Assembly: GCA_025839675.1 (NCBI GenBank)
Contig: CP104013.1
Location: 270,001-302,000 of the forward strand
DNA from: Candidatus Lokiarchaeum ossiferum
GTDB taxonomy: Archaea; Asgardarchaeota; Lokiarchaeia; Sigyniarchaeales; Promethearchaeaceae
DNA: 32,000 nucleotides
Direction: 5' to 3'
Position 1 is the first letter of the stretch; the number at the start of each line of letters is the position of its first letter. A program made the translations under genes and the position numbers. Positions 8,563 through 31,801 of the stretch are shown piece after piece. The notes below the pieces were generated by a model. The model saw nothing but the letters and a program-made list of their open reading frames with translations, did no database searches and had not been told where the DNA came from.

Positions 8563-9498
8563 ATGAATGATGATATCATTAAATATCAAGATACGGAACT
8601 ACATTACAAAGAAGTAAAATTTTTACAGGATTTGGAAGAGTTAACGCATAGAAAAATCCCTTGTCGTGAGAAATTTACCACAAAAAAATTTGGTTTCACT
8701 GCAGAGGGTTACCACATAATAGAATTACAATTAATTGATAGTGGGTTAACTCATCTTCCTTATTCGATTGGAAATTTAGAGAAACTTGAGACTATGTATC
8801 TCATTAAAAATAGATTAGAGGATTTACCTGACTCCTTTAGGCATCTGAAAAATCTGGAAGAATTACTCCTAAATTCAAATAAATTTACAGAAATCCCCAA
8901 ATATTTAGGAGAATTATCGAATCTTCGGATTTTAAATTTGGATGATAATTACATTACTCATATTCCAGAATCAATTTGTTCTTTACGAACGCTTAAAAGT
9001 CTGGACATCTTGAAAAATCAAGTCGAAACTCTCCCCGTTTGCATTGGAAATATGAAAAGTCTCAACCATCTGAATCTTCGTGATAACAGTCTTTCAGAAT
9101 TACCTGAATCCTTCGGCAATCTCTCTAATTTGTTCGAATTGAATCTAAGTTGTAATAAAATTACAAATTTACCAAATTCTATTGGTAGTTTACGTAATTT
9201 GAATTCGTTATTTTTAGGGGATAATTCTCTAAAAAAATTTCCCGATTCTTTTGCTAATTTAAAAAATCTGAAGGTTTTAAATGTTTCCGATAATCCACTC
9301 ACCGAAATCCCAAGTAAGTTTCATTCTCTTTCATCTCTTGAAGATTTGAATCTCAATAACACCAACGTGAAAAATTTACTTGAATATGTCAAAACTCTTC
9401 CCTCCTTGAAACGATTAGAAATAAAAAAAGTCAACCTTTCAGATGCCGATAAAAAACTAATTGTCACAACTTTAATGAATTGCAAAATCAGATATTAA
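8563..9498 (+). CDS. Leucine-rich repeat (LRR) protein, stand-alone
   Basis: 311 aa. About ten tandem 23-residue repeats of form LxxLxLxxNxLxxLPxSIGxLxN, for example LRNLNSLFLGDNSLKKFPDSFAN and LKNLKVLNVSDNPLTEIPSKFHS. Confidence 0.9.
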   Translation: MNDDIIKYQDTELHYKEVKFLQDLEELTHRKIPCREKFTTKKFGFTAEGYHIIELQLIDSGLTHLPYSIGNLEKLETMYLIKNRLEDLPDSFRHLKNLEELLLNSNKFTEIPKYLGELSNLRILNLDDNYITHIPESICSLRTLKSLDILKNQVETLPVCIGNMKSLNHLNLRDNSLSELPESFGNLSNLFELNLSCNKITNLPNSIGSLRNLNSLFLGDNSLKKFPDSFANLKNLKVLNVSDNPLTEIPSKFHSLSSLEDLNLNNTNVKNLLEYVKTLPSLKRLEIKKVNLSDADKKLIVTTLMNCKIRY

Positions 9499-10019
9499 CA
9501 GTTATATACGCAGCGCTAAAAGAAGAAAAGAACTATATATTATAAAGAAGGGAACAACAATAGCACTAATATAACTAATAATTAAAGATCTCTTAGTTTT
9601 TTTCAAAAAAAATCTCTATCTTTATATCTTAGTCTCTTTTAAAACTTCCTGAGTCATTTTTAAAATAGTGAATATTGATACGATCAAAAATGGAATCGCT
9701 GAGATTTTGATCTTTTTTGGGAATTCTCACATAAAAAACTAAAAACCGATTTTTTCAAAAATCTTTAGAATCCAATTGATGAAAGATCCAAAGTCGGATT
9801 TTTCCCATCATTGAAATAGTGAAATGGATCATTTTATCATTAATTTGAACCAAAAGTATAGAAAATGAGATCATATAACTAGATGTATGGATCGAAAGAA
9901 ATCGAAATTATATTTAGATATCAAGACTGCTTTATAAGAATTAATTCTCGCATTGAGAAAAAAGGAAGAAAATACGTAAGGTTTAATAGGTTGCTTGAAC
10001 TAATAAAGATAAGTAAATA

Positions 10020-10238
10020 TTACGAATTTTAAAGAAGCATCAAACAACCAATCGTGGGAGTTTGGCAATTTAATTTGTGAGTTGAATAAATATGGCACAA
10101 GAAAAATGGATTATAGAAGAAACTAAAAGATATGATCAAGAATTGCGTGATCAAAAAGAAGAAAATAGAACTATGCGAAAAATTGTTAATCGATCTTTAT
10201 TAAAATCAAAAAAAAACTCTAAAGCTTATAGAGGTTAA
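10020..10238 (+). repeat. Direct repeat unit A (~220 bp): small ORF plus ~70-nt conserved upstream region
   Basis: Aligns with 11711-11930. Shared blocks are TTAC(C)GAATTTTAA, CATCAAAC, TGGGAGTTTGGCA and GAGTTGAAT, followed by the ORF. Confidence 0.7.
10092..10238 (+). CDS. Small protein, 48 aa (paralog A), not in ORF track
   Basis: ATG 10092 to TAA 10236-10238: MAQEKWIIEETKRYDQELRDQKEENRTMRKIVNRSLLKSKKNSKAYRG. It has the same length as the ORF at 11784-11930 and is 24/48 identical to it, with many conservative changes. A conserved box TGGGAGTTTGGCA ends 25 nt upstream of the ATG in both copies. Confidence 0.55.
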   Translation: MAQEKWIIEETKRYDQELRDQKEENRTMRKIVNRSLLKSKKNSKAYRG

Positions 10239-11710: not shown

Positions 11711-11930
11711 TTACCGAATTTTAACTATTCATCAAACTACCCAAATTGGGAGTTTGGCATATTATACTATAGAGTTGAATTATATGACACAAGAAAACTG
11801 GATTTTAGAAGAATTAGAAAGATACGAACAACGTATCCATGACCAACAAACTGAAAATGCAATTAGACGAGAAGTACTTAAATTATCTTTATTAAAGTCA
11901 AAAATAAACGCTGGAGTGTATAATGGCTAA
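11711..11930 (+). repeat. Direct repeat unit B (~220 bp), paralogous to 10020-10238
   Basis: Same blocks and same spacing. The box ends 25 nt before the ATG in both copies. Confidence 0.7.
11784..11930 (+). CDS. Small protein, 48 aa (paralog B), not in ORF track
   Basis: ATG 11784 to TAA 11928-11930: MTQENWILEELERYEQRIHDQQTENAIRREVLKLSLLKSKINAGVYNG. Paralog of 10092-10238, with the same upstream box at 11747-11759. Confidence 0.55.
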   Translation: MTQENWILEELERYEQRIHDQQTENAIRREVLKLSLLKSKINAGVYNG

Positions 11931-18455: not shown

Positions 18456-18932
18456 TTAAAAATTCGTTAAGAATTTCTGATCTTTTCGCTTTAATTCCGA
18501 TGTTTCTTCATAGATTTTTTGAATATAAGTTCTCTGAGTGAAGAAAGAATTCTTTATTTTAACTAATGAATTTTTAATGTCATTTCCATCACCAATATCA
18601 TCGGATATCGACCGACAATTTCTTACTTTATCTTTAATTTGTTTAAAACTTTGGATAAACAAGCGATCTAAATGTGCATCGATTCGATGCGTATTTTGGT
18701 CAAAATAGTAGTCAAATACTTTATGGATATTGAGGATGTTAATATTTAATATACGGCTTTGCAGTTGTCCAAGGTGTTTAATTAAAATCGAATTTACTCC
18801 TGTCATAATATTCCTTTCAGTTTGTATAAGTTGATCATAATCTTCCTTAGATTTATCATGTTCAACTTTCGGACCGCTTTTTTCTACTTTAACAAGCTGT
18901 CCTTGTTCATTTCTGATGTATTTGTTTCTCAT
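18456..18932 (-). CDS. Hypothetical protein, 158 aa (paralog 1 of 2)
   Basis: ATG start. Gapless alignment to 20815..21291 gives 95/158 identities by hand count, with a fully conserved LFIQSFKQIKD block. No known motif recognised. Confidence 0.7.
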   Translation of the reverse strand: MRNKYIRNEQGQLVKVEKSGPKVEHDKSKEDYDQLIQTERNIMTGVNSILIKHLGQLQSRILNINILNIHKVFDYYFDQNTHRIDAHLDRLFIQSFKQIKDKVRNCRSISDDIGDGNDIKNSLVKIKNSFFTQRTYIQKIYEETSELKRKDQKFLTNF

Positions 18933-19556
18933 ACTTAGATTTCACTTCATTATTTGGATTGAATTAAAAAAAGAGCGTGTTTTAGTCCCTTGAATTTTTC
19001 ATCATCATTTTTTTTTTTATTGCTTTGGCATTTCCAAGTTTGGATTCAGATTTTGGGTAAGTATATTTTTCCCCTTAAGTGCTCCATAAACAATTATATT
19101 GAATTTAGTAGGTGATTTTTCTGCACTTAACCTGGAAAGTCTAAAGAATGGCTGATTCAATAAAAAAATGGATCATTATTTTTGTTGTTGCGAGTGAGGG
19201 ATATTAAAATTGTTCAATGGGATTCAAAATAATTGCAACGTATACCTATATAATAGGTACACTTCTTTAAAAAATTTTCTATAAAAATAGAAACTCTCGC
19301 CAAACAATCTCTTGAATTTACTTGGTTATTTAGGACTGCGCTTGAGATTTTCAATATCCAGAATCATTCAGTAATCTTTCAAAAATTCAGCAAAAAAGAA
19401 ATTACTTTTAATAGTATTTTTTGGAGCTAACTCAATCTATTAATTCTTCTTTAGAAAAAAGGATTTTTTACTATAAATAAATCACAAAGATCCAAGGATT
19501 TGTCCCAACTTTTATTCTGAAATTAAAATTTTTAGAAAACTGGGAAATTCAGTTAG

Positions 19557-19564
19557 TTTATATC
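19557..19564 (+). promoter_or_regulatory. TATA-like box TTTATATC inside the 7-bp inverted repeat GTTAGTT-N10-AACTAAC (19552-19575), ~30 nt upstream of ATG 19591
   Basis: Read directly. The spacing predicts a near-leaderless transcript. Confidence 0.35.
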
Positions 19565-19590
19565 TTTGAACTAACTTATGAAGATTAAAA

Positions 19591-20355
19591 ATGTTTCAAT
19601 ACTCAAAGAAGAATCATCAAGTCAAAATTTTTTGTAAAGGTTGTAAAGAAGATATTTCGTTTGCAATTCCAGAAAATCTTTTTCAAAAAGAAAATATCAA
19701 ATATCCTTATGTTTTTAGGTTTGTACATGGGGAACCTCCACACTCCATTTCCATGTATATTGATAAAAATGATTCAATTCGAGGATTTGAATTTGGAGAT
19801 TCTATTACACTTTCGGATGATTTAATTGAAAAAATTATTATTGAAAATGAGTTAAAAGGGGAAGTGAAAAAGGAAAAAGAGAATATTATTATACTCAAAT
19901 CTATTTTTGACACGTTTTCAACAGTAATTGAAGCAAAAGTACCTGAAACAGACAAGTTAGTTCAAAAAAACAATGCAAGTTTAACTTTACAATTGGAATC
20001 GTTGTATGAAACACATGATCATGCTCGATGGGGCGATAAAATTTTCAATATTCAAAAAAAAAATGAAAATTTTGTCATTTCAAACAATAAAGGCGATGTG
20101 TGGGAATTTAATTCTCAAACCAAGAAAAAGAAAATTCTACAACAATCTAAAGACTTGAAATTACATAATAAGTGGTTTCGAATAGTCACAAAAGATGGAA
20201 ATGTCGGATTTGATTATCGAAATATCTATATTGGTATGGATTTTAGTGGAGACTCCGTTATAATTGAACAAATTGGATCAAAATATGTTGTTTCCCATGA
20301 AAATATAATCATAAAAGAACAGGAAGTAAATGAAACCGTAAACAAAAGAACTTAG
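19591..20355 (+). CDS. Hypothetical protein, 254 aa
   Basis: ATG start with a TATA-like box about 30 nt upstream. One CxxC (FCKGCKED) near the N-terminus. No family recognised. Confidence 0.6.
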   Translation: MFQYSKKNHQVKIFCKGCKEDISFAIPENLFQKENIKYPYVFRFVHGEPPHSISMYIDKNDSIRGFEFGDSITLSDDLIEKIIIENELKGEVKKEKENIIILKSIFDTFSTVIEAKVPETDKLVQKNNASLTLQLESLYETHDHARWGDKIFNIQKKNENFVISNNKGDVWEFNSQTKKKKILQQSKDLKLHNKWFRIVTKDGNVGFDYRNIYIGMDFSGDSVIIEQIGSKYVVSHENIIIKEQEVNETVNKRT

Positions 20356-20536
20356 CCTTTTTTTTAATATTAACCATCAATATTGGAAATGCTGGTGCGA
20401 TTTACTATAACTTCGGTGCCAATATGTTCTTTATTTAAAAAAAAACATTGCATAATTAAATCATATGCATAAGTTTTCTGTTTAAAACAATTTTTAATAG
20501 AGGATTTATCCACATGTCTTTCCATTTTCTCTATTA

Positions 20537-20770
20537 CTAATTTTTTAACAAATTTTTAGTTAATTCGATGTCACTTGCGTATGGACCTTTTCGATTCTTT
20601 AGTATTTCAAATTCAACTTTATCTCCCTTTCTGGGTGATATTACTCCAAAATTATATTGATTTATTTCTTCAAAATGAAAAAAAACATCCTTTTTATCTT
20701 GATTTACTGAAATAAAGCCATATCCTTTGATAGAATCATACCATTTTATTTTTCCTTTCTTTTTAATCAT
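20537..20770 (-). CDS. Cold-shock-domain protein (CspA-like)
   Basis: KGKIKWYDSIKGYGFIS (RNP1-like KGYGFI) and DVFFHF (RNP2-like). I place the start at ATG 20770, preceded by GGAGGTGAAA, rather than at the track's TTG at 20782. Confidence 0.8.
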   Translation of the reverse strand: MIKKKGKIKWYDSIKGYGFISVNQDKKDVFFHFEEINQYNFGVISPRKGDKVEFEILKNRKGPYASDIELTKNLLKN

Positions 20771-20814
20771 TTTCACCTCCAAAATTGCTTATATTGATAA
20801 TTAATTTGTTAATT

Positions 20815-21291
20815 TTAATAACCTGATAAAAAACTATGATTATTTTGTTTCAACTCAGCAGTTTGTTTATAAATCTTTTTGATATATTTTCTCTGGGTAA
20901 GAAACGATGTTTTTATTCTTGATAATTGACTTTTGATCTTTGTTTTTTTATTCATCTCATCGGATATCGACCGAGAATTTCTAATCATATCTTTAATTTG
21001 TTTAAAACTTTGAATAAACAAGGTATCAAGGTGTGCATTGATTCGATAGGTATCTTGATTGAAATAATATTCAAATACTTTCTGAATATTTAGAACATTG
21101 GTTTTTAATATTCGCCTTTGCAATTGGCCAAGATGGTTATGCAGCATTTTTTTAATTTCAACCATTATATTACTTTGTTCTTGCTTGAGTTGATGGTAAT
21201 CATCTTGGGATTTATCATGATCCACTTTAGGGCCATGATCTTCAACTTTAACAATTTTTCCATATTCATTCTTGATATATTTGTTTTTCAT
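20815..21291 (-). CDS. Hypothetical protein, 158 aa (paralog 2 of 2)
   Basis: About 60% identical to 18456..18932. Embedded in a co-directional five-gene cluster. Confidence 0.7.
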   Translation of the reverse strand: MKNKYIKNEYGKIVKVEDHGPKVDHDKSQDDYHQLKQEQSNIMVEIKKMLHNHLGQLQRRILKTNVLNIQKVFEYYFNQDTYRINAHLDTLFIQSFKQIKDMIRNSRSISDEMNKKTKIKSQLSRIKTSFLTQRKYIKKIYKQTAELKQNNHSFLSGY

Positions 21292-21341
21292 GTTTTATTT
21301 GCACTCTTTCTTTTAATTCATTTTAAAAAATAGAGGAAGGG

Positions 21342-21545
21342 TTAATTCTGGATGTCTACAAGATTTTGATTTCTGACTTTGATTTTTGTTACTTTAGTTT
21401 TGCCTCGTTTGTTTTTATATTTCCGGAAGAACTCTCCATTTTTTTCAAATAAGATGGGTTTAATGAAGCCATCACCTGGAAATTCCTCTGCTTTTACATA
21501 GATTTTCTTTTTTAAGTTGTAAAATATTTTCGCTGACATTGTCAT
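21342..21545 (-). CDS. Hypothetical small basic protein, 67 aa
   Basis: ATG start 18 nt after the stop of the upstream gene, co-directional within the cluster. Lys/Arg-rich C-terminus. Confidence 0.45.
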   Translation of the reverse strand: MTMSAKIFYNLKKKIYVKAEEFPGDGFIKPILFEKNGEFFRKYKNKRGKTKVTKIKVRNQNLVDIQN

Positions 21546-21563
21546 TTCCTTTTATTTAATTAG

Positions 21564-22175
21564 TTATATTTTTTTTTTTAATAAAATGTAATTTGGAGAC
21601 TGAATTTCAGTCCCATTTATTTCTTCTTCCTCATAATCATAGCCCAAATCTATCCATTTTTGTATATAGGCTTTTCTATCTTTTTGAATTGCAATTTGTA
21701 TGAACTTACAATGAAGTTTTTTCAAATTATATTCGATATACATATGAAAATATTCATTCAATCTGAGATCTGCATAATAGGGATGAATTTTCATATACAA
21801 AATTTGATATACACGTGGTTTATAGGGTGATATAATTCCGATTACTCCCCCAATTAAGTTTTTATTCCCTATTTGAAATAGAGGGACAGATGTCTGTTGG
21901 AGTGCTTTATCTCGATTTAGTTGCAAGAAATCAAATTCCTTAAATGAATCTTGATTCCCATCTAACAGGAGAAAACACCCCTTTCCGTAGAATTGTTGAA
22001 TAATTTTGTAATGGATAGGTTTTAGATCAATATTATCAAATGATTCAAAAAATTGTTTAATTTTTTGAAAATCATGATAATCTGTTTTCTTAATTTGTAG
22101 ATTATTAAAAAAGATATTAATTTGGTTAACTATGGGGCATTTTTTTCGATTCTTTGATATCAATTTGTATTTCAC
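21564..22175 (-). CDS. Hypothetical protein with possible degenerate GNAT fold, 203 aa
   Basis: The C-terminal half, ILYMKIHPYYADLRLNEYFHMYIEYNLKKLHCKFIQIAIQKDRKAYIQKWIDLGYDY, has GNAT-like beta4-alpha3...beta-strand spacing but lacks the Q/RxxGxG/A acetyl-CoA loop. GTG start. Confidence 0.35.
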   Translation of the reverse strand: MKYKLISKNRKKCPIVNQINIFFNNLQIKKTDYHDFQKIKQFFESFDNIDLKPIHYKIIQQFYGKGCFLLLDGNQDSFKEFDFLQLNRDKALQQTSVPLFQIGNKNLIGGVIGIISPYKPRVYQILYMKIHPYYADLRLNEYFHMYIEYNLKKLHCKFIQIAIQKDRKAYIQKWIDLGYDYEEEEINGTEIQSPNYILLKKKI

Positions 22176-22189
22176 TTCATGTCTATTAA

Positions 22190-22375
22190 TTATTTCATAA
22201 TATTATATTCTAAATTCTCCCTCTTTTTTGAGAAGGGAGAGACTTTTGGCCGATTCGGTAAAATAAAATCCTTTTTCATTGAATAATCAAGAAAATCATC
22301 ACCTAATTCCTTATTAAAAATCCTTCTGCACGTATAATTCGTAGGACTTACCCATTTGACTTGAAAATCTTGCAT
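22190..22375 (-). CDS. Hypothetical small protein, 61 aa (first ORF of cluster; coding status uncertain)
   Basis: ATG start directly downstream of the conserved leader. Its first ~45 nt still align weakly with the 5' end of the ORF at 27635. Confidence 0.35.
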   Translation of the reverse strand: MQDFQVKWVSPTNYTCRRIFNKELGDDFLDYSMKKDFILPNRPKVSPFSKKRENLEYNIMK

Positions 22376-22448
22376 TTTAGTCCTTTGCAGATGAATTTAG
22401 ATGGAAATGTGGAAATTATTCTATAAAATCTGAACGATAGGTGTATCA

Positions 22449-22479
22449 ACAACAAATTCAAACCTTATCCTTTTGTTGT
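22449..22479 (-). promoter_or_regulatory. Stem-loop in leader copy 1: ACAACAAA / TTTGTTGT (8 bp) with a 15-nt loop
   Basis: Read directly. Stem arms are conserved in copy 2 while the loop sequence differs. Confidence 0.45.
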
Positions 22480-22551
22480 GAATAATTGGAACGTAATTGT
22501 TTCAATTCGATTATGAATAACTGCCAAGTACTATATTAATTAAGAATTTCT

Positions 22552-22559
22552 CATATAAA
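22552..22559 (-). promoter_or_regulatory. TATA-like box TTTATATG (minus strand) within repeat copy 1; predicts a ~150-nt 5' leader
   Basis: Minus strand reads AAAAATTTTTATATGAG. The homologous TTTATATA occurs at 27804-27811 in copy 2. Confidence 0.4.
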
Positions 22560-23116
22560 AATTTTTCTATCGATTTTGAAGATATTTAATTAATATCTTT
22601 CTAATACAATGGGACATTTAGAAATCTGCTGAAGATCCAGATTATTAACAGTTATTCCGATCTCTTTTAATAGTTAGGATGAAAATAGGCGAAACTTTGG
22701 TGTTTACTTTTATGCGTTATTTTAATGAATTTGGTCTCCTAGATTGCAATTTTGATCCCAGAATGTTTTTTGTATATTTTTACTCATTTATGCTGAAATT
22801 AAGGATTTATTCGTTGTTTAAAATATGGAAAAAATTCAAGTTTAATGAGTTGCAAAACGACATTTGTTACAATTAGATGAGAAAAAACATTTGGTCGATT
22901 AAATTGGAAAAAATTTTAGTATTTTTGGGTAGGAAACGGAAGCGATTTAATTCCATTACAATACAATCAATTTTCAATTTTAACCACAATTTACAATAAT
23001 TTCTTTAGATTATGATCTAAAACATAATATATGGCTAATTTTAGAGCTAAGATTTGTTGTAGTAAACTTTGGGATTTATAGATTATCTAACCTATAATAA
23101 AAAATATTCAATGGCG

Positions 23117-23133
23117 AAAAATAGAGTAAAAAA
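23117..23133 (-). terminator. Two oligo-T tracts (T6 and T5 on minus strand) 7-20 nt after the AsnB-like stop
   Basis: Plus strand cgAAAAAtagagtAAAAAAg, immediately downstream of TAA (23140-23142). Confidence 0.35.
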
Positions 23134-23139
23134 GAAGAG

Positions 23140-24645
23140 TTACACAATAAATACAGAGGTTCGAGGCATATTTTGGATGAATTCTTCGGTAAAACCAAAT
23201 TTCTGATTAAATACTTGCCAATAATGTAATTCTTCCTTATTTTTCAGGATAACTCCTGGAAAAATCTCTTTTTGGTTATTAAAAGCATCATCGGTAAATT
23301 TTTTGTCAAAGTAATCGCGTAAAATAAATTGAGAACCAACACCTTTTGAAAATTTGGCTTTATGACGCTTATATACACTCAATGGGATTATTTTCTTAAA
23401 GCTTTCTCGAATAATCCATTTTTCTAATAGTTCCCCTTCTGCTGTTTTGTAAAGTTTTACTTCTGAAGGAAAAGTAAAGGACAAATCAACAATTTCCTTA
23501 TTGAACCAAGGTGCTCGTGCTTCTATTCCAAATGCATAAGGTATTCTGTCAACCCTTTGTAAACCTGTAGAATGTTCTATTTTTAACATTTCTTCAATTT
23601 CTTTGTCAAATTGTTCAGAAGTAAGTTCTTTCAAATAATCATAACCTCCAAATAATTCATCTCCACCCTCTCCTGTCAACAATACATCCGCTTTTTTACC
23701 GATCTTTGAGCAAATATAGTACATCGGGATAGCGCTCCTTATTAGTGCAGCATCAAAAGTTTCTAGATGGTAAATTACATCATCGATAATTGGAAGCATT
23801 TCTTCTATCGTGATTTTGAAAATATGATGATTTACTTCTGGATACATCTTAGTAAAATTCTTTGCATGTTCAAGATCTGGAGAATTTTCGGCTACTACAG
23901 TATAAACATCGAGATTGGGTATATATTTCTGTGCTAATGCACATATAACGACGGAATCAATACCTCCACTTAATAGTGCAGCAACTTTACCATTCGTCCC
24001 AATTGAATTTTGAACTGCTCTATCTAAGGTTGTGGACAGTTTCTGTTTCATAATATCTAAATCATTGATAGAAGTGGTATTTTCATTAAAATTATAATAT
24101 TTTTTTAATTCAAGTCCTGTTTCCGAAAAAATCATTGCTTGTCCCGGTTCAATGGTGCGTGGTATGCCTGAAAAATGGCTGAAAATTTTCAATTCGGAAG
24201 AAATCAAAAGAAATTCTGGTTGATTCATATAATAAAGAGGATTAAAACCCATCTGATCTCTAACCGCTACAATTTCTTTAGAATTTTTTATTAAAATCGA
24301 GAATTCTCCTATCAATTGTTTAAAAAATGCAATCCCATGTTTTTTATAACCACTTTCAAGATATTTCAAATCAATATTAGTAATAGATGAATTTAATTCC
24401 TTGATTCGTTCATTTGATAAGTAACCATCTATAATTGAAAATCCTTTATTATTTATACTTACTTCCGTATTCATTTGACCTTTGTTTAAGAAAAAAATCC
24501 CCACAGAATTTGGATCGTGGTACGATAGTTTTTTGAAATTGCCACGATGGGCAATTTTTTCAGCGATTTCATGAATATGTTCTATATTGATCGGCTTTTT
24601 TTTATTCTTTTTATGGTAATACACAATTCCTGTCATTTTTTGCAC
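23140..24645 (-). CDS. Asparagine synthetase B-like ATP-dependent amide synthetase with degenerate glutaminase domain (no Cys1)
   Basis: PP-loop ALLSGGIDSVVICALA, LLTGEGGDELFGGYDY, and LQRVDRIPYAFGIEARAPWFNKEIVD. The N-terminus reads M-T-G-I (ATG 24636) where AsnB has M-C-G-I. The track start is GTG 24645. Confidence 0.85.
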   Translation of the reverse strand: MQKMTGIVYYHKKNKKKPINIEHIHEIAEKIAHRGNFKKLSYHDPNSVGIFFLNKGQMNTEVSINNKGFSIIDGYLSNERIKELNSSITNIDLKYLESGYKKHGIAFFKQLIGEFSILIKNSKEIVAVRDQMGFNPLYYMNQPEFLLISSELKIFSHFSGIPRTIEPGQAMIFSETGLELKKYYNFNENTTSINDLDIMKQKLSTTLDRAVQNSIGTNGKVAALLSGGIDSVVICALAQKYIPNLDVYTVVAENSPDLEHAKNFTKMYPEVNHHIFKITIEEMLPIIDDVIYHLETFDAALIRSAIPMYYICSKIGKKADVLLTGEGGDELFGGYDYLKELTSEQFDKEIEEMLKIEHSTGLQRVDRIPYAFGIEARAPWFNKEIVDLSFTFPSEVKLYKTAEGELLEKWIIRESFKKIIPLSVYKRHKAKFSKGVGSQFILRDYFDKKFTDDAFNNQKEIFPGVILKNKEELHYWQVFNQKFGFTEEFIQNMPRTSVFIV

Positions 24646-24649
24646 TTTT

Positions 24650-25834
24650 TTACTTATTAATTGTTAGATATTCACCCTTCAATTTTGAAGGGAGCGATTT
24701 TTGATGGATTCTACTTGCTGAAATTTTATTTCTAGTTAATAATCTCGAAAAACCTCCTTTAACCTTCTTTTGAGGAAAAGTTTGCAAATAGTTATTTATC
24801 GGAAAGCGGATTCGAGATAGAGTTCTTCCATTTTTATAAAAATTAACTCCAAGTAAACTTCCTGCGAGAGTTATGAAAGAATCAATTATTGGGGTTGGAA
24901 TGTTCAGGTATTTACCAAGAGAAGAAAGAGGTATAAGACCTGTTGGTACTTCTTCCATCAAGTATCTGTTATTTAGATCCTTTGGGGCTTTAATCTTTTT
25001 ATAGGGTTCAATAATTCTGAAAGCTTCAAAATAATTAGAGGCATTCACATTATATGAATCTCTTACCCATTGTAAAAATGTTTTTGGGCGAATTCCTAAT
25101 TTGTTTAAAATTAGACATCTTTCCTTATCCATCTCTTTAATAACATTAGCAATTTGCAAAGAAACATCTCTATAGAAAAAAAAATCATTTTTCCTGAGAA
25201 TTGCCCCTGCATTCAAAATTGAAATAGTTGGATGCAAAAGTGCCCCAATATTATTCAAACTTGTTTCTAGAATGTTTGATACAAAATTTAGTTGTGGAAA
25301 AATAGTTTTTAATTCTTTTTGAATTTTAATGTCCTCTCTTTCTGGGTAAAAACAGATGTCCAGAGAATTTTTAATTTTGATAATATCTACTCCCGAATCT
25401 GAGATTTTACGGCATGTAAATAAAAGAGATTGGGTTTCTGCAACCTTAATTCGTAAATTCGGTCGTTTCCGTTTAATAAAATTATAAACTTCAACCGCTC
25501 CAAATGTCCGTCCTGGATTTAAAATAAGAATTTGTCCATCTGATAAAGAAGGTAATATTCTTTCTATAATTTCAATATGAACATGAGCTGGGACCACTAT
25601 GAAAATGTACTTGGAATTGTGGATTAAATTAACATAATTAGGCGATATTCGCCCAATAGGGTAAATTCCCTTCATCAACCCTTTAGATACGATTTTTCCT
25701 GTTCTTAAAATAGTGCTGATGTTTTCATAAGTGCGAAACCCAAGTTTTACTTTAAATCCTAAATCCGATAAATATACAGCAAAAGCACGACCTCCATTAC
25801 CGGCCCCAATAATCGTAATTTCATTTGATTTCAT
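24650..25834 (-). CDS. Opine (octopine/nopaline) dehydrogenase-family NAD(P)-dependent oxidoreductase
   Basis: N-terminal Rossmann motif ITIIGAGNGGRAFAVYL. Central LLHPTISILNAGAI is typical of the Octopine_DH helical domain. GGGAGA RBS upstream. Unusual basic C-terminal tail. Confidence 0.6.
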   Translation of the reverse strand: MKSNEITIIGAGNGGRAFAVYLSDLGFKVKLGFRTYENISTILRTGKIVSKGLMKGIYPIGRISPNYVNLIHNSKYIFIVVPAHVHIEIIERILPSLSDGQILILNPGRTFGAVEVYNFIKRKRPNLRIKVAETQSLLFTCRKISDSGVDIIKIKNSLDICFYPEREDIKIQKELKTIFPQLNFVSNILETSLNNIGALLHPTISILNAGAILRKNDFFFYRDVSLQIANVIKEMDKERCLILNKLGIRPKTFLQWVRDSYNVNASNYFEAFRIIEPYKKIKAPKDLNNRYLMEEVPTGLIPLSSLGKYLNIPTPIIDSFITLAGSLLGVNFYKNGRTLSRIRFPINNYLQTFPQKKVKGGFSRLLTRNKISASRIHQKSLPSKLKGEYLTINK

Positions 25835-25874
25835 TCTTCTCCCTTTTTTTAATTTTTATAAGTATCACTTATTT

Positions 25875-27635
25875 CTAACAAGTTGGTGAATTTGATAAAA
25901 AAGATTTTACATCTAATTGTTCAAATTTAGAAAATAATCTTCTTATTCGATCCTTTTCAAGCAAACGATGGCCATCTTCAGTTACACAAATACATTTACC
26001 GTCTATAATTTTAGAATTAATATTTCCAAAGTTTGATGAATCATTTTTTAGATGTGGTGCATCAAAAAATCCATTTTCGACAATTGAAGTTAAAAATTCT
26101 GGAGTCAACAAATAATTCTCACCATAATGAGATTCTCCAAAGTCTTCAATCGCGGATAAAGTTATCCGAGCTTCCTTTATCAATTCATTTTTATATCTTT
26201 GAATCTCGGGATCATTAGTTAAGTTAATTGGATCATAACTTACTTCCTCAACTACTTTCTTCGCAATTTGTGCGCTAACAATTATATCTTGAGCTTTGGC
26301 TGCATGATTCGCTTCACAATAATTTACAATATGTATGATTGAGGGTTTTACTGCCATTTGGAATAACGTTGATAAAGCTAATTGGGCTTTTGCTTCATCT
26401 GGATTGTTTGAAAAATATGATAATCCTGCTCGAGTTTCTTTTAATATATCGAATGAAGGAGATTTCAAGGGTTCTACAACCTCAATCATCGCCAATACTC
26501 GACCTAAATCCATATTGAGACTGTTACCTACAGGAGTATTAAACATCAATTGTTGAATATACGTTTTGACTCCCAGTTCTTTGGCAATTTTTGCACATAG
26601 AAAGGCATCGGCAACAACTATATGGTCTGGAGCTGCTCGAAGTCCCCATTGATGAGGATCATTAATTTCAACGGGTAAATTTCGATGAGCGTGCCACATT
26701 ATATTTTCTAAGTTTTCTTGAATCGCTAATTTTAACGGACGCTTGGATCTACCATCTAGATCAGAATACCAAAATATCGGTGTTGCAGTCCATGCATTTT
26801 TTAAATATTTTAATTGAACTTTACTATTTAATATTAAATCTTGGGTTCCAGCATATATTCTAAGTAATGGGTAATTCCCAACTTGAGCGGAAGCGTAAAT
26901 TCTTTGCAAATCTTCTGTAGTTCTAATGGGAATACCTCCAGCACCTTTATCACATTTTTCAAGTACATCTTTTCGATGAAAATATTCTTGAGCAGGTTGA
27001 TCTGGAGCTATTGATATTACATCTACTAATTTTGATTTAGCAATTTTTTTAATTTCTTCTAAAGATTGTTCTAATGAATTCAATCCAAAATGAGTTCGAT
27101 ATATCGGATTTGGGGATTTCAATTTCAGTCGTGAAAGTAAATTAGATGCTTCAATATTTTTTTTTTGAGCTGCTGGATCTTTATCTTCCAATATTGCAAC
27201 ACAATATGAAGGTGATTCTCCCCCGATGAAAATATGTTTAAAGAAATTTAATGGAATGATTTTTTCTTTCAATGCTGGTAAACATCCTAGTAAAAAAATA
27301 CGCTTTGAAAGGTTTTTTTCATGAATCTCAGAAATAAAGTTTTTAATGATTTCAAATCCAACATCCGGAGTCAATCTAAAAGATAAAGCAACAACATATG
27401 GGTTTAAATGTTGGATTTCATAAATTATTTTATCAATTGAACATGCAGGCCCCAAAAATGATGTTTGATAACCATTTTCTTGTGCAATCTTAAAAAAATT
27501 GGTTATTCCTGCAACATGAACACAACTGTCAAGACATGCTCCCAAAATGTGTTTATTTTTTGTACTCTGCATCATTTTTTTCACTTTATAACGGTGTAAT
27601 CTAATAAATTTATCTGGTAAAATCTTTTCAAACAA
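25875..27635 (-). CDS. Fusion protein: N-terminal cobalamin (B12)-binding Rossmann-like domain plus a ~430-aa C-terminal domain resembling glutamate mutase E (methylaspartate mutase) by eye
   Basis: Residues ~25-150, HILGACLDSCVHVAGITNFFKIAQENGYQTSFLG...VVALSFRL...IFIGGESP, align by eye to MutS/GlmS ([31 protein letters not shown]...CVSS...VGG). There is no CxxxCxxC, so it is not a radical SAM enzyme. Start is ambiguous: TTG 27635 or ATG 27575. Confidence 0.55.
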   Translation of the reverse strand: MFEKILPDKFIRLHRYKVKKMMQSTKNKHILGACLDSCVHVAGITNFFKIAQENGYQTSFLGPACSIDKIIYEIQHLNPYVVALSFRLTPDVGFEIIKNFISEIHEKNLSKRIFLLGCLPALKEKIIPLNFFKHIFIGGESPSYCVAILEDKDPAAQKKNIEASNLLSRLKLKSPNPIYRTHFGLNSLEQSLEEIKKIAKSKLVDVISIAPDQPAQEYFHRKDVLEKCDKGAGGIPIRTTEDLQRIYASAQVGNYPLLRIYAGTQDLILNSKVQLKYLKNAWTATPIFWYSDLDGRSKRPLKLAIQENLENIMWHAHRNLPVEINDPHQWGLRAAPDHIVVADAFLCAKIAKELGVKTYIQQLMFNTPVGNSLNMDLGRVLAMIEVVEPLKSPSFDILKETRAGLSYFSNNPDEAKAQLALSTLFQMAVKPSIIHIVNYCEANHAAKAQDIIVSAQIAKKVVEEVSYDPINLTNDPEIQRYKNELIKEARITLSAIEDFGESHYGENYLLTPEFLTSIVENGFFDAPHLKNDSSNFGNINSKIIDGKCICVTEDGHRLLEKDRIRRLFSKFEQLDVKSFLSNSPTC

Positions 27636-27698
27636 ATGTATTAAATTTAGTATGAGATATGGGAATTATTCTACAAAATCTGAATGATGAATAAATCA

Positions 27699-27730
27699 AC
27701 AACAAAATCCTTAGATTTTTTCTATGTTGT
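27699..27730 (-). promoter_or_regulatory. Stem-loop in leader copy 2: ACAACA / TGTTGT (6 bp, extendable with a bulge) with a 20-nt loop
   Basis: Homologous position to 22449-22479. Confidence 0.4.
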
Positions 27731-27803
27731 GAATAATCGGAATCTACTCGATTCAATAAGACTTTGAATAATTGCCTAGTACCATATTACTTTTAGATCT
27801 TCA

Positions 27804-27811
27804 TATATAAA
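27804..27811 (-). promoter_or_regulatory. TATA box TTTATATA (minus strand) within repeat copy 2
   Basis: Minus strand reads TTAAATTTTTATATATGAAG. Matches the archaeal TTTAWATA consensus and is conserved with copy 1. Confidence 0.45.
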
Positions 27812-28273
27812 AATTTAACTGTTGAATTTGAGACTATTAAACCAATAACTCTTCATTTATTTAAGATATTGTTAACTCAGATTAAAATACATATTCTCGA
27901 CTGTTTTATTGATCTATCTTAATCTTTAGGATGAAAAGAGATTTTTTTCTACTTTATTTAATTTTAGGTTATTTTGGCTAACTAGAGCGCCAAGCAGAAA
28001 AAAATTTTCCATTAGAGATTTTTCTAAAAATTTAATCATTCATGCGTTTATACTTATTCTATACTTGTTTATACCTAAGAAAAAAAAGACATTATCAAAA
28101 TTCAAAATATCTTAGATGATGATGGAACTGGCAGAATGGATGATAACATAATCACAAAAAAATCTGTCATGGAATTCGTTTTACATCATAATCATTATAC
28201 ATGACTGACAAATTGAAGTAATTGTAAAGTTCCTATCATTCGAATTGTGATAATTAGGTAAATATGCTGTGTT

Positions 28274-28285
28274 AAAAAAAAAAAA
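28274..28285 (-). terminator. T12 tract (minus strand) abutting the stop codon of the last sHSP gene
   Basis: A12 on the plus strand at 28274-28285. The stop TAA is at 28286-28288. Confidence 0.5.
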
Positions 28286-28870
28286 TTATTTATTTACCTT
28301 TAAAGTAATCAGTCCATTGTCAGCATCAATGGTCGGTTTGTTTTTGGGTTTAAACGGAAGTCGAATTTGTTTTTTATATTCTACCTTGTCATTTTTCCCA
28401 ATGATTTTCAATAAATCTCCTTCGATTTTTGTCTCAATATCCTTCAAACCGATTCCAGGCATTTCGAACCGATAAATGTGCGTATCATCTTTTGGTTCTC
28501 CTTTTTTTTCGTTCTTTTTTTTCTTCTTTGACAACAATAATTTTGGATTTTTTATAGATGAACCTTCCAATTCTACTCCATATTTAGAGTTTATACCTGA
28601 TACAAATCTGTTGATAGTATCCTTGTCTACATCACCTTCTATCATTATTTCTGGTTCATCCATCCCAGTTTCATATTTGTAAGATAAAGAATAACTTTTA
28701 TCTTTTTGATTTGAATCATAAAAATTTTCATAATGGGAAGAAAAATGGTAGTTATCTTTCAAAGAAGAATCTTGCTTCATTTTTTGAAATTTTTTTTCTA
28801 TATCGTTCCATTCATCATGGATTCTCTCAAATTCTTTATCAATATCGTCAAATATGCGAAATACTTTCAT
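28286..28870 (-). CDS. Hsp20/alpha-crystallin-domain protein with long acidic and poly-Lys N-terminal extension (194 aa)
   Basis: C-terminal ACD: HIYRFEMPGIGLKDIETKIEGDLLKIIGK...IDADNGLITLKVNK. GGAGGT RBS. T12 directly after the stop. Confidence 0.7.
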   Translation of the reverse strand: MKVFRIFDDIDKEFERIHDEWNDIEKKFQKMKQDSSLKDNYHFSSHYENFYDSNQKDKSYSLSYKYETGMDEPEIMIEGDVDKDTINRFVSGINSKYGVELEGSSIKNPKLLLSKKKKKNEKKGEPKDDTHIYRFEMPGIGLKDIETKIEGDLLKIIGKNDKVEYKKQIRLPFKPKNKPTIDADNGLITLKVNK

Positions 28871-28912
28871 TATTTTACCTCCTCTTTATTTGATTTAAAA
28901 AAAAACAACGAC

Positions 28913-29236
28913 TTACTCTAACTTAATTCTATAAGCATCATCCATGGGATTCTTAATTTTACCTGTGATATATAGTAAGCCTTCTTCATAATCTCCTTTT
29001 ACTGTATCTATATCAACCTCCCAAGGAAAATGTCCTGACAACGAATAATGGGCATTATCTCTTGTTGCCGATAGATCAAAATATTTTGGTAAAACTCGAA
29101 ATTTGATCTTGGATTTATCAACACCAGGTAAATGAATCTCCAAATTCCATTCTTTTTTGGTAGATTCTACATTGAAATGACTGGTGGGCGTTATTTTATA
29201 TTTTATTTCTGTTTCTTGTGCTTCTTCTTGAGTCAT
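28913..29236 (-). CDS. Minimal Hsp20/alpha-crystallin-domain protein (107 aa)
   Basis: WNLEIHLPGVDKSKIKFRVL...GDYEEGLLYITGKI, with a C-terminal I-x-L (RIKLE). AGGAGG RBS. Confidence 0.7.
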   Translation of the reverse strand: MTQEEAQETEIKYKITPTSHFNVESTKKEWNLEIHLPGVDKSKIKFRVLPKYFDLSATRDNAHYSLSGHFPWEVDIDTVKGDYEEGLLYITGKIKNPMDDAYRIKLE

Positions 29237-29248
29237 TCTTTATTCCTC

Positions 29249-29629
29249 CTAAAATTTTATTTCTTTCGCTCCATCGAAGGGATCCGGAATATGGGCTGTT
29301 ATGGTTAATAAACCACAATCATATTTGGCAGTCGTTCTCTCAGGAATGATGGTTTTTCCAAAGTTTTGATTTGCATTATACATTAATTGACCACGTTTTG
29401 CTTCCAAGTAGAACCATTTGGGAAGCGCTTTCAGTTTAATATTTTCCTTTTTTACTCCTGGTAAAGCGATTTCAAAGGTAATTATTCTTTTATCATAGTC
29501 TATGTTTCGAGTCATATCAGGAAAAACATTATATATAGATTCTTTTTTTTCTTCTTCTTGTTTTTGAGCTTCTGTCATTTCTTCTTTTTCTCTTTCTATC
29601 ATTGCCATGTTCATCATCTCCATTTGCAA
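29249..29629 (-). CDS. Minimal Hsp20/alpha-crystallin-domain protein (about 124-126 aa)
   Basis: ITFEIALPGVKKENIKLKAL...AKYDCGLLTITAHI, with a C-terminal I-K-F. Start is uncertain: TTG 29629 or ATG 29623. Confidence 0.65.
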   Translation of the reverse strand: MQMEMMNMAMIEREKEEMTEAQKQEEEKKESIYNVFPDMTRNIDYDKRIITFEIALPGVKKENIKLKALPKWFYLEAKRGQLMYNANQNFGKTIIPERTTAKYDCGLLTITAHIPDPFDGAKEIKF

Positions 29630-29635
29630 AAAAGA

Positions 29636-29971
29636 TTATTCAATTTTAACATCAAAAGCATGTTCGAGAGGATTATAACGTTTTAATTCCACCTTCAATA
29701 AGCCTTCCTCATATTTTGCTTTGCTTACATCGGGTTCAACTTTAGTAAGTTCGAGATCCAGTGCATACATTACCTCACCACGGGGAGCTCGTAATGTGAA
29801 ATAATTGGGGAGAACTCGCATATCAATGTCCTCCTTTTTTACTCCCGGAATTGCGATTTGAATGGTGACAATTTCATCTTTACTCCATACACCATAGCGA
29901 GGAGTCACTTTGTAGCGTGGATCATCACTACTTTTTTCCGTCTGGTTTTTTTCAGATTTTATAATTGACAT
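29636..29971 (-). CDS. Minimal Hsp20/alpha-crystallin-domain protein (111 aa)
   Basis: VTIQIAIPGVKKEDIDMRVL...AKYEEGLLKVELKR, with a C-terminal V-K-I. AGGAGA RBS. Confidence 0.7.
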   Translation of the reverse strand: MSIIKSEKNQTEKSSDDPRYKVTPRYGVWSKDEIVTIQIAIPGVKKEDIDMRVLPNYFTLRAPRGEVMYALDLELTKVEPDVSKAKYEEGLLKVELKRYNPLEHAFDVKIE

Positions 29972-31246: not shown

Positions 31247-31801
31247 TTATTTAATTTGTTCGTAATATTTTAATCTATTTAACATTAAATTATAAATTGG
31301 ATCATCAGATAATGCATTCGTTGCCAAATTTGCAAAAAACTTACTTTTTTTAAGAAGATAATTATAGTTATCCATTCCATCTACATAATTTTTAGCGGAA
31401 TAAATAAAATAACTTAAATTATCGTAGATATCTGCAGCTTTGACTATTAATGCGCTTTTCCCGTGATTTAGACAACGTTTAAACATATCTTGATATCTCT
31501 CTTCTAAATTTGCAATTTCGACATTAAAAGAATTGATTGCAACAAGTTCTGCAATTTCATTACCAAATTTCTCAGCAATATCGCTTTTAGTAATTGATGA
31601 ATCCTCAATTAAATCATGCAATATACCTGCAATTATTACAAATTTCGGATAATTGAATCTCAATATTGTCATTCCTACACGTATACTATGCAAAATTACT
31701 GGCTTAGGATTGTTTCCAGAAGAAAGAATATTCTTGACTAGAAAGTTAATTGCGTTCTCAATTTCTTTATCTGAAGAATGATCGTGGAAAATGGAATACA
31801 T
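31247..31801 (-). CDS. HD-domain protein of the RelA/SpoT hydrolase type (small alarmone hydrolase / Mesh1-like)
   Basis: 184 aa. HSIRVGMTILRF...VIIAGILHDLIEDSSITKSDIAEKFGNEIAELV matches the H...HD..ED core of (p)ppGpp hydrolase domains. No synthetase domain is present. Confidence 0.65.
   Translation of the reverse strand: MYSIFHDHSSDKEIENAINFLVKNILSSGNNPKPVILHSIRVGMTILRFNYPKFVIIAGILHDLIEDSSITKSDIAEKFGNEIAELVAINSFNVEIANLEERYQDMFKRCLNHGKSALIVKAADIYDNLSYFIYSAKNYVDGMDNYNYLLKKSKFFANLATNALSDDPIYNLMLNRLKYYEQIK

Follow-up and report, generated by a model that had tools for sequence, protein, structure and literature searches.

A repeated promoter with a probable folded leader RNA upstream of three gene units in Candidatus Lokiarchaeum ossiferum

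The window analysed here is a stretch of 32,000 nucleotides (nt) of Candidatus Lokiarchaeum ossiferum (assembly GCA_025839675.1, contig CP104013.1, positions 270,001 to 302,000) with a G+C content of about 30%. It contains three copies, designated A, B and C, of a noncoding module in which promoter-like motifs are followed by a conserved sequence that is probably a folded leader RNA. All genes from position 31801 down to 20370 lie on the minus strand, and two unusually long intergenic gaps are found within this run (22376-23139 and 27576-28285). The parts of the module are read on the minus strand throughout. A 566-amino-acid (aa) protein encoded behind copy B (25875-27575, minus strand) is identical to NEF87_000260, and a second strain (CP163304.1, locus L001) shows 97-98% identity across the regions of interest. 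The copies and the genes behind them are as follows.

22394-22800, minus strand: copy A of the module
20370-22386, minus strand: genes behind copy A, i.e. a 61-aa open reading frame (ORF), genes for 203 and 67 aa, a member of a 158-aa protein family, a gene for a cold-shock-domain protein (20537-20782) and a 51-aa ORF
27644-28052, minus strand: copy B of the module
23140-27575, minus strand: genes behind copy B, encoding a 566-aa protein with a B12-binding domain, a 394-aa protein of the octopine dehydrogenase family and an asparagine-synthase-like protein of 498-501 aa (assigned with Pfam and NCBIfam)
19082-19330, minus strand: copy C, a third and more diverged copy, upstream of a 158-aa gene (18456-18932, minus strand)

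Copies A and B are homologous across about 400 nt, with blastn aligning 22394-22793 to 27644-28045 at 65% identity over 402 nt (E=1.5e-48). This confirms an original prediction, made from the letters of the window, that the regions upstream of two operons are homologous. The module had been estimated at about 300 bp, but on the far side of the TATA box from the genes the homology continues for about another 230 nt. Over the 150 nt closest to the genes, identity is about 79%, and a 27-nt consensus block has exactly two occurrences in the window, one in A and one in B, while shuffled sequences lead to an expectation of zero. Other intergenic DNA had been thought to lack such conservation. However, copy C carries the element as well, being matched at 19103-19364 by an nhmmer profile built from A and B (E=6.6e-12). 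The three copies have the same orientation, each upstream of minus-strand genes. In a covariance-model scan of 123 kb, comprising the window and about 90 kb of related DNA, 13 matches score 106-147 bits, compared to at most 17.9 bits for the remainder.

That 17.9-bit stretch, at 22849-22984 on the minus strand between the asparagine-synthase-like gene and module A, is a possible degenerate relic of a further copy. Its match is marginal, with E=0.004 in a search of 501 bp but 0.97 in the search of 123 kb. It has a recognisable tail (TCTCAT-CTAATTGTAACAAATGTCGTTTTGCAA) and may be the remnant of a tandem copy. Beyond the promoter, the homology of A and B (22569-22800 and 27821-28052, minus strand; 234 nt at 58%) is lineage-specific. 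Upstream of the TATA box, C shares its own 133 nt with the related locus L144, and B shares nothing with its orthologue at locus L017. Besides the module, the window holds other duplicated stretches, namely the 158-aa paralogues and a pair of 48-aa ORFs.

The homology was also said to run into the first 45 nt or so of both downstream ORFs. On the B side this is leader sequence, because the true start of the B gene is the ATG at 27575, giving 566 aa as in NEF87_000260 and all homologues, and not the TTG at 27635 that was originally assumed. On the A side, no convincing similarity is found inside the 61-aa ORF.

Orthologous loci were retrieved via homologues of the flanking proteins, and the same element is present at orthologous places in four other Lokiarchaeum-like assemblies. 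Loci L017 and L144 come from the same European Nucleotide Archive (ENA) sample (ERZ26802894), L019 from GCA_018238425.1, L020 from a Logan assembly and L141 from another ENA contig. In front of the 566-aa orthologue, the module is found in L017 (64% protein identity, E=3.9e-17), L020 (E=1.3e-8), L019 (E=1.2e-6) and L141 (E=1.9e-28), and in L144 it precedes the 158-aa orthologue (E=4.3e-42). The core of module B is 70% identical to that of its L017 orthologue, whereas fourfold-degenerate sites of the adjacent gene are only 35% identical, indicating that the module is under purifying selection. Conservation in related genomes had been set beforehand as a check on the original prediction, and it was thus found at orthologous positions and far above neutral identity.

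Based on these searches, the distribution of the module appears narrow, at the level of a genus. A scan of genome contigs with a 20-nt conserved block returned only chance matches in unrelated A+T-rich bacteria, and the source genome was not among the matches. A scan of metagenome contigs with a gapped pattern gave at least 120 stretches, none of them homologous by nhmmer (all E>0.1). Upstream of a 572-aa orthologue (54% identity) at loci L142/L143 (around 9850-9900), no module is present. A compact hairpin is seen there with GAATAA/TTATTC words in swapped order (AAGAATAAC..GTTTATTATTCTT), adjoining a AAAATCTAAATTC word, which might reflect chance similarity in A+T-rich DNA or a remnant that was remodelled.

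Wherever the upstream sequence is long enough, the copies have the same order of parts: an AAGAGAT-like motif, a transcription factor B recognition element (BRE) with a TATA box, a GTAY site, the leader, a variable spacer, a Shine-Dalgarno-like site and the start codon. The individual promoter and start elements are given below.

27845-27855, minus strand: AAGAGAT-like motif of module B (TGAAGAGTTAT), about 40 nt upstream of the TATA box, a possible transcription-factor site
22593-22602, minus strand: AAGAGAT-like motif of module A (AGAAAGATAT)
19305-19315, minus strand: upstream motif of module C
27804-27820, minus strand: BRE/TATA of module B (AGTTAAATTTTTATATA), aligned and conserved in every copy with upstream sequence
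22553-22568, minus strand: BRE/TATA of module A (AGAAAAATTTTTATAT)
19265-19280, minus strand: BRE/TATA of module C (AGAAAATTTTTTAAAG)
27775-27782, minus strand: GTAC initiator-like site of module B, with a predicted transcription start near 27782
22524-22531, minus strand: GTAC of module A, within the leader core
27573-27587, minus strand: Shine-Dalgarno-like AAGTGA of module B and ATG of the 566-aa gene
18930-18948, minus strand: Shine-Dalgarno-like site of module C and ATG of the 158-aa gene, after a spacer of about 150 nt

The TATA-like boxes had already been noticed at 22552-22559 and 27804-27811, and their positions hold. The sequence AGAAAAATTTTTATAT or a variant of it is aligned in A, B, C, L017, L144, L019 and L020, and the order of BRE followed by TATA box fits the gene-sense strand only. 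As in the archaeal core promoter, an A-rich BRE abuts a gene-directed T/A-rich TATA box (8-9 bp), with a pyrimidine-purine initiator-like site about 25 nt downstream, and all three are conserved in position in every copy. Counted from the first T of the TATA box, the GTAY of every copy lies about 31 nt downstream, suggesting transcription starts near 22531 (A), 27782 (B) and 19245 (C). The upstream motif, A[AG]AGA[GT][AT]T, and the TATA box are separated by the same distance in A, B, C, L017, L144 and L020.

Contrary to a plain core promoter, which would make up only one part of the module, the TATA boxes lie about 185, 235 and 330 nt from the start codons. In the upstream regions of about 20 other genes of the window, the distance between TATA-like box and start codon is 27-42 nt or about 73 nt. 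The module leaders, several times longer than these, are therefore exceptional for their surroundings. In B, C, L017, L144, L019 and L020, the start codon has a Shine-Dalgarno-like (A/G)AAGTGA ahead of it. Copy A deviates at its 3' end, with a shortened tail and an AAAGGA site ahead of the 61-aa ORF. Elsewhere in the window, start codons are preceded by Shine-Dalgarno-like sites of the GGAGG/AGGAG or AAGTGA type.

The leader was analysed in an alignment of eight distinct sequences, representing about two clades, in gene-sense orientation. RNAalifold predicts a 13-pair long-range helix interrupted by a 3-nt bulge (P1), a hairpin (P3) and a small hairpin (P4), with P1 enclosing P3 and a conserved AUUGAA box. 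In the window, the leaders are laid out as follows.

27624-27785, minus strand: leader core of module B (covariance model, 140.5 bits)
27624-27771, minus strand: its elements, i.e. P1 (27759-27771 with 27666-27682), AUUGAA box (27752-27757), P3 (27699-27730), possible P4 (27685-27698) and tail (27624-27650)
22382-22534, minus strand: leader core of module A (127 bits)
22392-22520, minus strand: its elements, i.e. P1 (22508-22520 with 22416-22432), AUUGAA box (22501-22506), P3 (22449-22479), possible P4 (22435-22448) and shortened tail (22392-22400)
19082-19245, minus strand: diverged leader core of module C (114.5 bits)

P1 reaches up to about 18 pairs in single copies, and its bulge is a conserved 3-nt RUA. 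A conserved single-stranded tail (CUAAAUUCAAU..UUGUUUG) follows the P1 domain. The stem of the original prediction (ACAACA/TGTTGT) is found as placed, at 22449-22479 and 27699-27730, and corresponds to P3. The dominant structural feature of the leader, however, is P1, which had been missed.

The consensus fold is specific to the gene-sense strand. On the antisense strand, RNAalifold finds no consensus structure at 37 °C, and at 20 °C the consensus energies are -9.2 kcal/mol (sense) and -1.95 kcal/mol (antisense). The change of the sense value from -2.1 kcal/mol at 37 °C to -9.2 kcal/mol at 20 °C would be seen for any A/U-rich helix and is no evidence of temperature sensing. Standard pairing is observed in 89.7% of the alignment cells, compared to 40-58% when the partners are slid, and double-sided changes occur in 13 cells versus 6.0±1.7 in shuffles, a count reached by one shuffle in 500. 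Among the non-Watson-Crick cells, 26 are G·U and 6 are A·C, an excess that points to selection on a minus-strand RNA and not on a double-stranded DNA site. The homologues thus maintain base pairing through compensatory changes and through wobble changes, in a pattern particular to the transcribed strand. For P3, the pairing persists while the sequence is replaced: the arms are ACAACA/UGUUGU in L. ossiferum and L144, CCCCAAU/AUUGGGG in L020 and CCCCCAC/GUUGGGGG in L141.

Seven copies have a complete 5' strand of P1, and in six of them single-sequence folding gives P1 a base-pair probability of 0.44-0.94 (0.94 in B, 0.44 in A); in L141 the contig end truncates this arm. The energy of the P1 duplex is -7.8 to -12.8 kcal/mol, and no copy departs from the helix-bulge-helix layout. 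The AUUGAA box may furthermore pair with UUCAAU in the tail, as 95.7% of the cells pair, with only changes to G·U and no double changes.

Some other functions were considered for the leader region and rejected. Pairing between leader and Shine-Dalgarno site as an expression platform was discarded since the sites are inconsistent among the copies. A conserved upstream ORF in the leader is contradicted by 1-nt indels between A and B, by the absence in A of the ATG of B and L017, and by unrelated peptides. A plus-strand ORF of 65 aa (22679-22876) and its 16-codon counterpart in B are not conserved as proteins, with only a TTAGGATGAAAA block in common, in A and B only. On inspection, neither a C/D-box RNA (no matching box order) nor a bulge-helix-bulge RNA (no second bulge) could be recognised.

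From the homology, the above-neutral conservation, the promoter-like motifs and the strand-specific complementarity with some compensatory change, we infer transcription and its start site, a cis-regulatory role and candidate regulators. With moderate confidence, each copy is interpreted as an archaeal promoter and, behind it, a conserved 5' leader RNA that folds and would control the downstream genes in cis. TATA-binding protein and transcription factor B would bind the BRE/TATA (AGAAAAATTTTTATAT), with a further factor possibly binding the AAGAGAT motif about 40 nt further upstream, and transcription would start near the conserved GTAC, around 22531, 27782 and 19245. The first 150 nt or so would fold, with about +10 to +30 pairing with about +105 to +125 as P1, which would close a domain containing the AUUGAA box and the variable hairpin P3 and be followed by the single-stranded tail. 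A shared trans-acting signal would then read the fold and set the fate of the mRNA, through stability, read-through or translation, so that the three units would respond together. As signal, we lean towards a protein over a small-molecule ligand because both P1 strands and the bulge are conserved in sequence and because the 158-aa family is always linked to the module. Candidates are the 158-aa family itself and the cold-shock-domain protein of unit A.

This interpretation keeps the essence of the original prediction, in which a shared promoter and a leader of about 150 nt with a stem-loop act as a cis-regulatory module, and adds BRE/TATA motifs on the gene strand, conservation across species and the maintained P3 pairing. 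The part that did not stand is that the gene sets behind it are unrelated, as discussed below.

Several observations weigh against a folded, cis-acting leader. The start site and the read-through into the genes are deduced from the sequence. The minimum free energies are no better than those of dinucleotide shuffles (mean z of about -0.6, both strands), and the covariation comes from eight sequences of essentially two clades, with few independent events. P4 has no support from single-sequence folding, and copy C, which looks degenerate, is not folded into P1 by single-sequence prediction. An expression platform was not found: duplexes between leader and Shine-Dalgarno site occur at inconsistent positions, and no conserved T-tract terminator follows the tail. 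The module is not detectable at the orthologous loci of relatives with 54-56% protein identity (P0006, P0007 and P0011). Finally, both P1 strands are strongly conserved in sequence, which recognition of DNA by a protein would explain equally well.

This last point leads to the alternative that the blocks downstream of the TATA box are operators through which a transcription factor represses or activates three promoters and that the RNA fold is incidental. The candidate sites would be AATTATTC motifs, two direct and one inverted, which together form both P1 arms. Such a motif is indeed found three times per copy in AATTATTC-like form, the P1 arms are conserved in sequence and not merely in complementarity, and the RNA folds are thermodynamically unremarkable. 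The 5' arm of P1 lies just downstream of the predicted start, and archaeal repressors often bind just downstream of the start site. Moreover, the upstream AAGAGAT motif suggests that part of the module is probably a DNA-level signal. However, the 26 G·U versus 6 A·C cells and a consensus fold on one strand form an asymmetry that is not expected of double-stranded DNA sites, and P3 retains its pairing despite replacement of its sequence. In addition, the conservation reaches to about +160 from the predicted start, far past a normal operator, and the inverted arms are about 80 bp apart. Purely DNA-level control is considered rather unlikely. Of the two options left by the original prediction, a protein operator or a structured leader RNA, the leader RNA is favoured over a pure DNA operator, given the G·U excess and the fold on the gene-sense strand only.

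It is also unlikely that the P1-closed junction is a metabolite riboswitch binding a small molecule tied to the enzymes of the B unit (mutase-like, opine-dehydrogenase-like and asparagine-synthase-like). Its layout is aptamer-like, as a closing helix surrounds a multi-stem domain with a conserved unpaired AUUGAA box and UUAUUC, and the B unit does encode enzymes. Competition of a second AAUUAUUC segment for the 3' strand of P1 could permit a switch, but this alternative pairing is weak (-3.4 to -7.3 kcal/mol), and neither a terminator nor a platform sequestering the Shine-Dalgarno site was found. The helix strands are the most conserved parts and the loops and the P3/P4 region vary, the reverse of most riboswitches. 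Furthermore, the C and L144 copies precede only a small helical protein without an assigned function.

Comparison with known RNA families points in the same direction. Rfam 15 gives no match in the whole window at gathering thresholds, and none overlapping the three copies at E<=5, so that no riboswitch family, cobalamin included, is matched by the module. For the cobalamin riboswitch (RF00174) in particular, no match was obtained at E<=5 over 18900-28300. Module B does resemble it in lying in the 5' leader of an enzyme operon with a B12-binding-domain protein, and, as in RF00174-type aptamers, P1 encloses internal hairpins with a possible competing strand. In contrast to those aptamers, the module is conserved in its helix strands and not in a junction core, and no expression platform could be identified.

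A second comparison concerns the cold-shock genes cspA/B/G/I of E. coli, which have conserved long 5' untranslated regions with a 'cold box' and are represented in Rfam by the cspA thermoregulator. Similar to these, a leader of about 150-160 nt is common to several paralogous or co-regulated units, conserved primary-sequence blocks lie near the 5' end and the fold is weak and A/U-rich. Unit A also encodes a cold-shock-domain protein, and Hsp20 genes adjoin. Differences are that the module has no similarity to the cspA leaders in sequence or by covariance model, that the cold-shock-domain gene (20537-20782) is only the fifth gene behind copy A and behind no other copy, that it is absent from the loci seen in related species, and that the host is an archaeon with a BRE/TATA promoter. 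The parallel is suggestive, but no defining feature of the cspA family is present.

The module could alternatively be an independent gene for a small RNA of about 150-160 nt that carries its own promoter, the genes behind it being transcribed from proximal promoters of theirs. In line with this, the conservation ends about 20-190 nt ahead of the start codons, a run of 6-7 T lies between element and gene in C and L144, and many TATA-like boxes of the window lie 27-42 nt from start codons. Yet A, B, L017, L019 and L020 have no conserved T-tract behind the tail, the tail of A is only about 20 nt from the start codon, and all eight independent copies point to a gene start immediately downstream, making this explanation quite improbable.

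Least probable is a domesticated or decaying miniature inverted-repeat mobile element, with the P1 arms as terminal inverted repeats, that landed in three intergenic regions by chance: the copies are short and A+T-rich, have imperfect inverted repeats of 17-20 bp and occur several times within 9 kb, with the marginal relic adjoining copy A and a tRNA-like fragment upstream of the L144 copy, but the inverted repeats are not the ends of the unit because the homology of all copies runs past both arms into promoter and tail, the element is retained at orthologous sites in several species (about 70% versus 35% neutral identity), it faces the genes in the same direction in every copy, the arm boundaries show no target-site duplication, and no further copies were found in the 123 kb of related DNA searched.

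Returning to the promoter and leader interpretation, the genes behind the copies provide a common context. Relatives of the 566-aa protein also match the glutamate mutase E-chain family. The 158-aa family has members at 18456-18932 and 20815-21291 (both minus strand), in L017 (13064-13537) and in P0122; the gene behind module C is thus the second paralogue in the window, 60% identical to the first. A family member lies behind the module at every locus with enough downstream sequence. No Pfam or NCBIfam match was obtained for the family, its AlphaFold model is helical with low confidence (a predicted local distance difference test score, pLDDT, of 50), and homologue searches with the 158-aa and 203-aa proteins returned Lokiarchaeum sequences only.

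The gene sets behind A and B were originally regarded as otherwise unrelated. In relatives, however, one module stands in front of the 566/394-aa genes together with the 203-aa or 158-aa genes directly behind them. The genes for 567 and 394 aa of L017 are directly followed by a member of the 158-aa family (157 aa, 44% identity), and in L019 a homologue of the 203-aa protein is encoded 24 nt after the 566/394-aa-type genes, with no second module. The three units are pieces of one conserved gene neighbourhood, as judged from these gene orders. In the simplest history, the copies would have arisen by duplication within this neighbourhood, with A being an internal copy of the region upstream of B made in L. 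ossiferum. The ancestral state would have been one unit under one module, together with a separate unit of module and 158-aa gene that existed before the species split. B-type and C-type copies would then both be older than the divergence of the related species sampled in ERZ26802894.

Around the copies, further differences in gene order can be seen. Directly upstream of module B lie four tandem Hsp20-like genes (194, 107, 126 and 111 aa; 28286-29971, minus strand). The HD-domain and HAD genes precede the Hsp20 genes in the window, but in L144 a 41-aa ORF comes next, and a module copy with the 158-aa gene lies about 0.7 kb further along. Module copies may thus have been sites of rearrangement. 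About 290 nt upstream of the L144 copy lies a G+C-rich, tRNA-like fragment (9367-9438, plus strand) that scores 19 bits against the Rfam tRNA model (gathering threshold 29) and is not called by ARAGORN, possibly the remains of a tRNA.

Apart from the module, a second duplicated segment is present in the window at 10023-10238 and 11715-11930 (plus strand, 72-78% identical). It holds paralogous 48-aa ORFs at 10092-10238 (MAQEKWIIEETKRYDQ...) and about 11787-11930 (MTQENWILEELERYEQ...), each preceded by about 70 nt of conserved sequence (CGAATTTTAA..ATCAAAC.ACC..TGGGAGTTTGGCA). The arrangement resembles a pair of small-protein genes that have a promoter region in common.

To our knowledge, very few cis-regulatory RNAs are known in archaea. 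No cis-regulatory RNA of Asgard archaea was found described in Rfam or in the literature searched, and the literature search returned nothing on leaders or start sites in L. ossiferum. The module is therefore probably an undescribed cis-regulatory leader with its promoter. A bolder and only tentative extension would be that the leader represents a new class of regulatory RNA of Lokiarchaeum-type Asgard archaea, acting as a ligand or temperature switch or in an autoregulatory circuit with the 158-aa protein, and coordinating a stress- or metabolism-related neighbourhood. L. ossiferum can be grown in enrichment culture, and the module offers a concrete candidate for a regulatory RNA under selection in this organism. 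It also illustrates how a cassette of promoter and leader can be copied to split and re-wire an operon, and it links the mutase-like and opine-dehydrogenase-like pair, the 158-aa family and several small proteins into one probable regulon.

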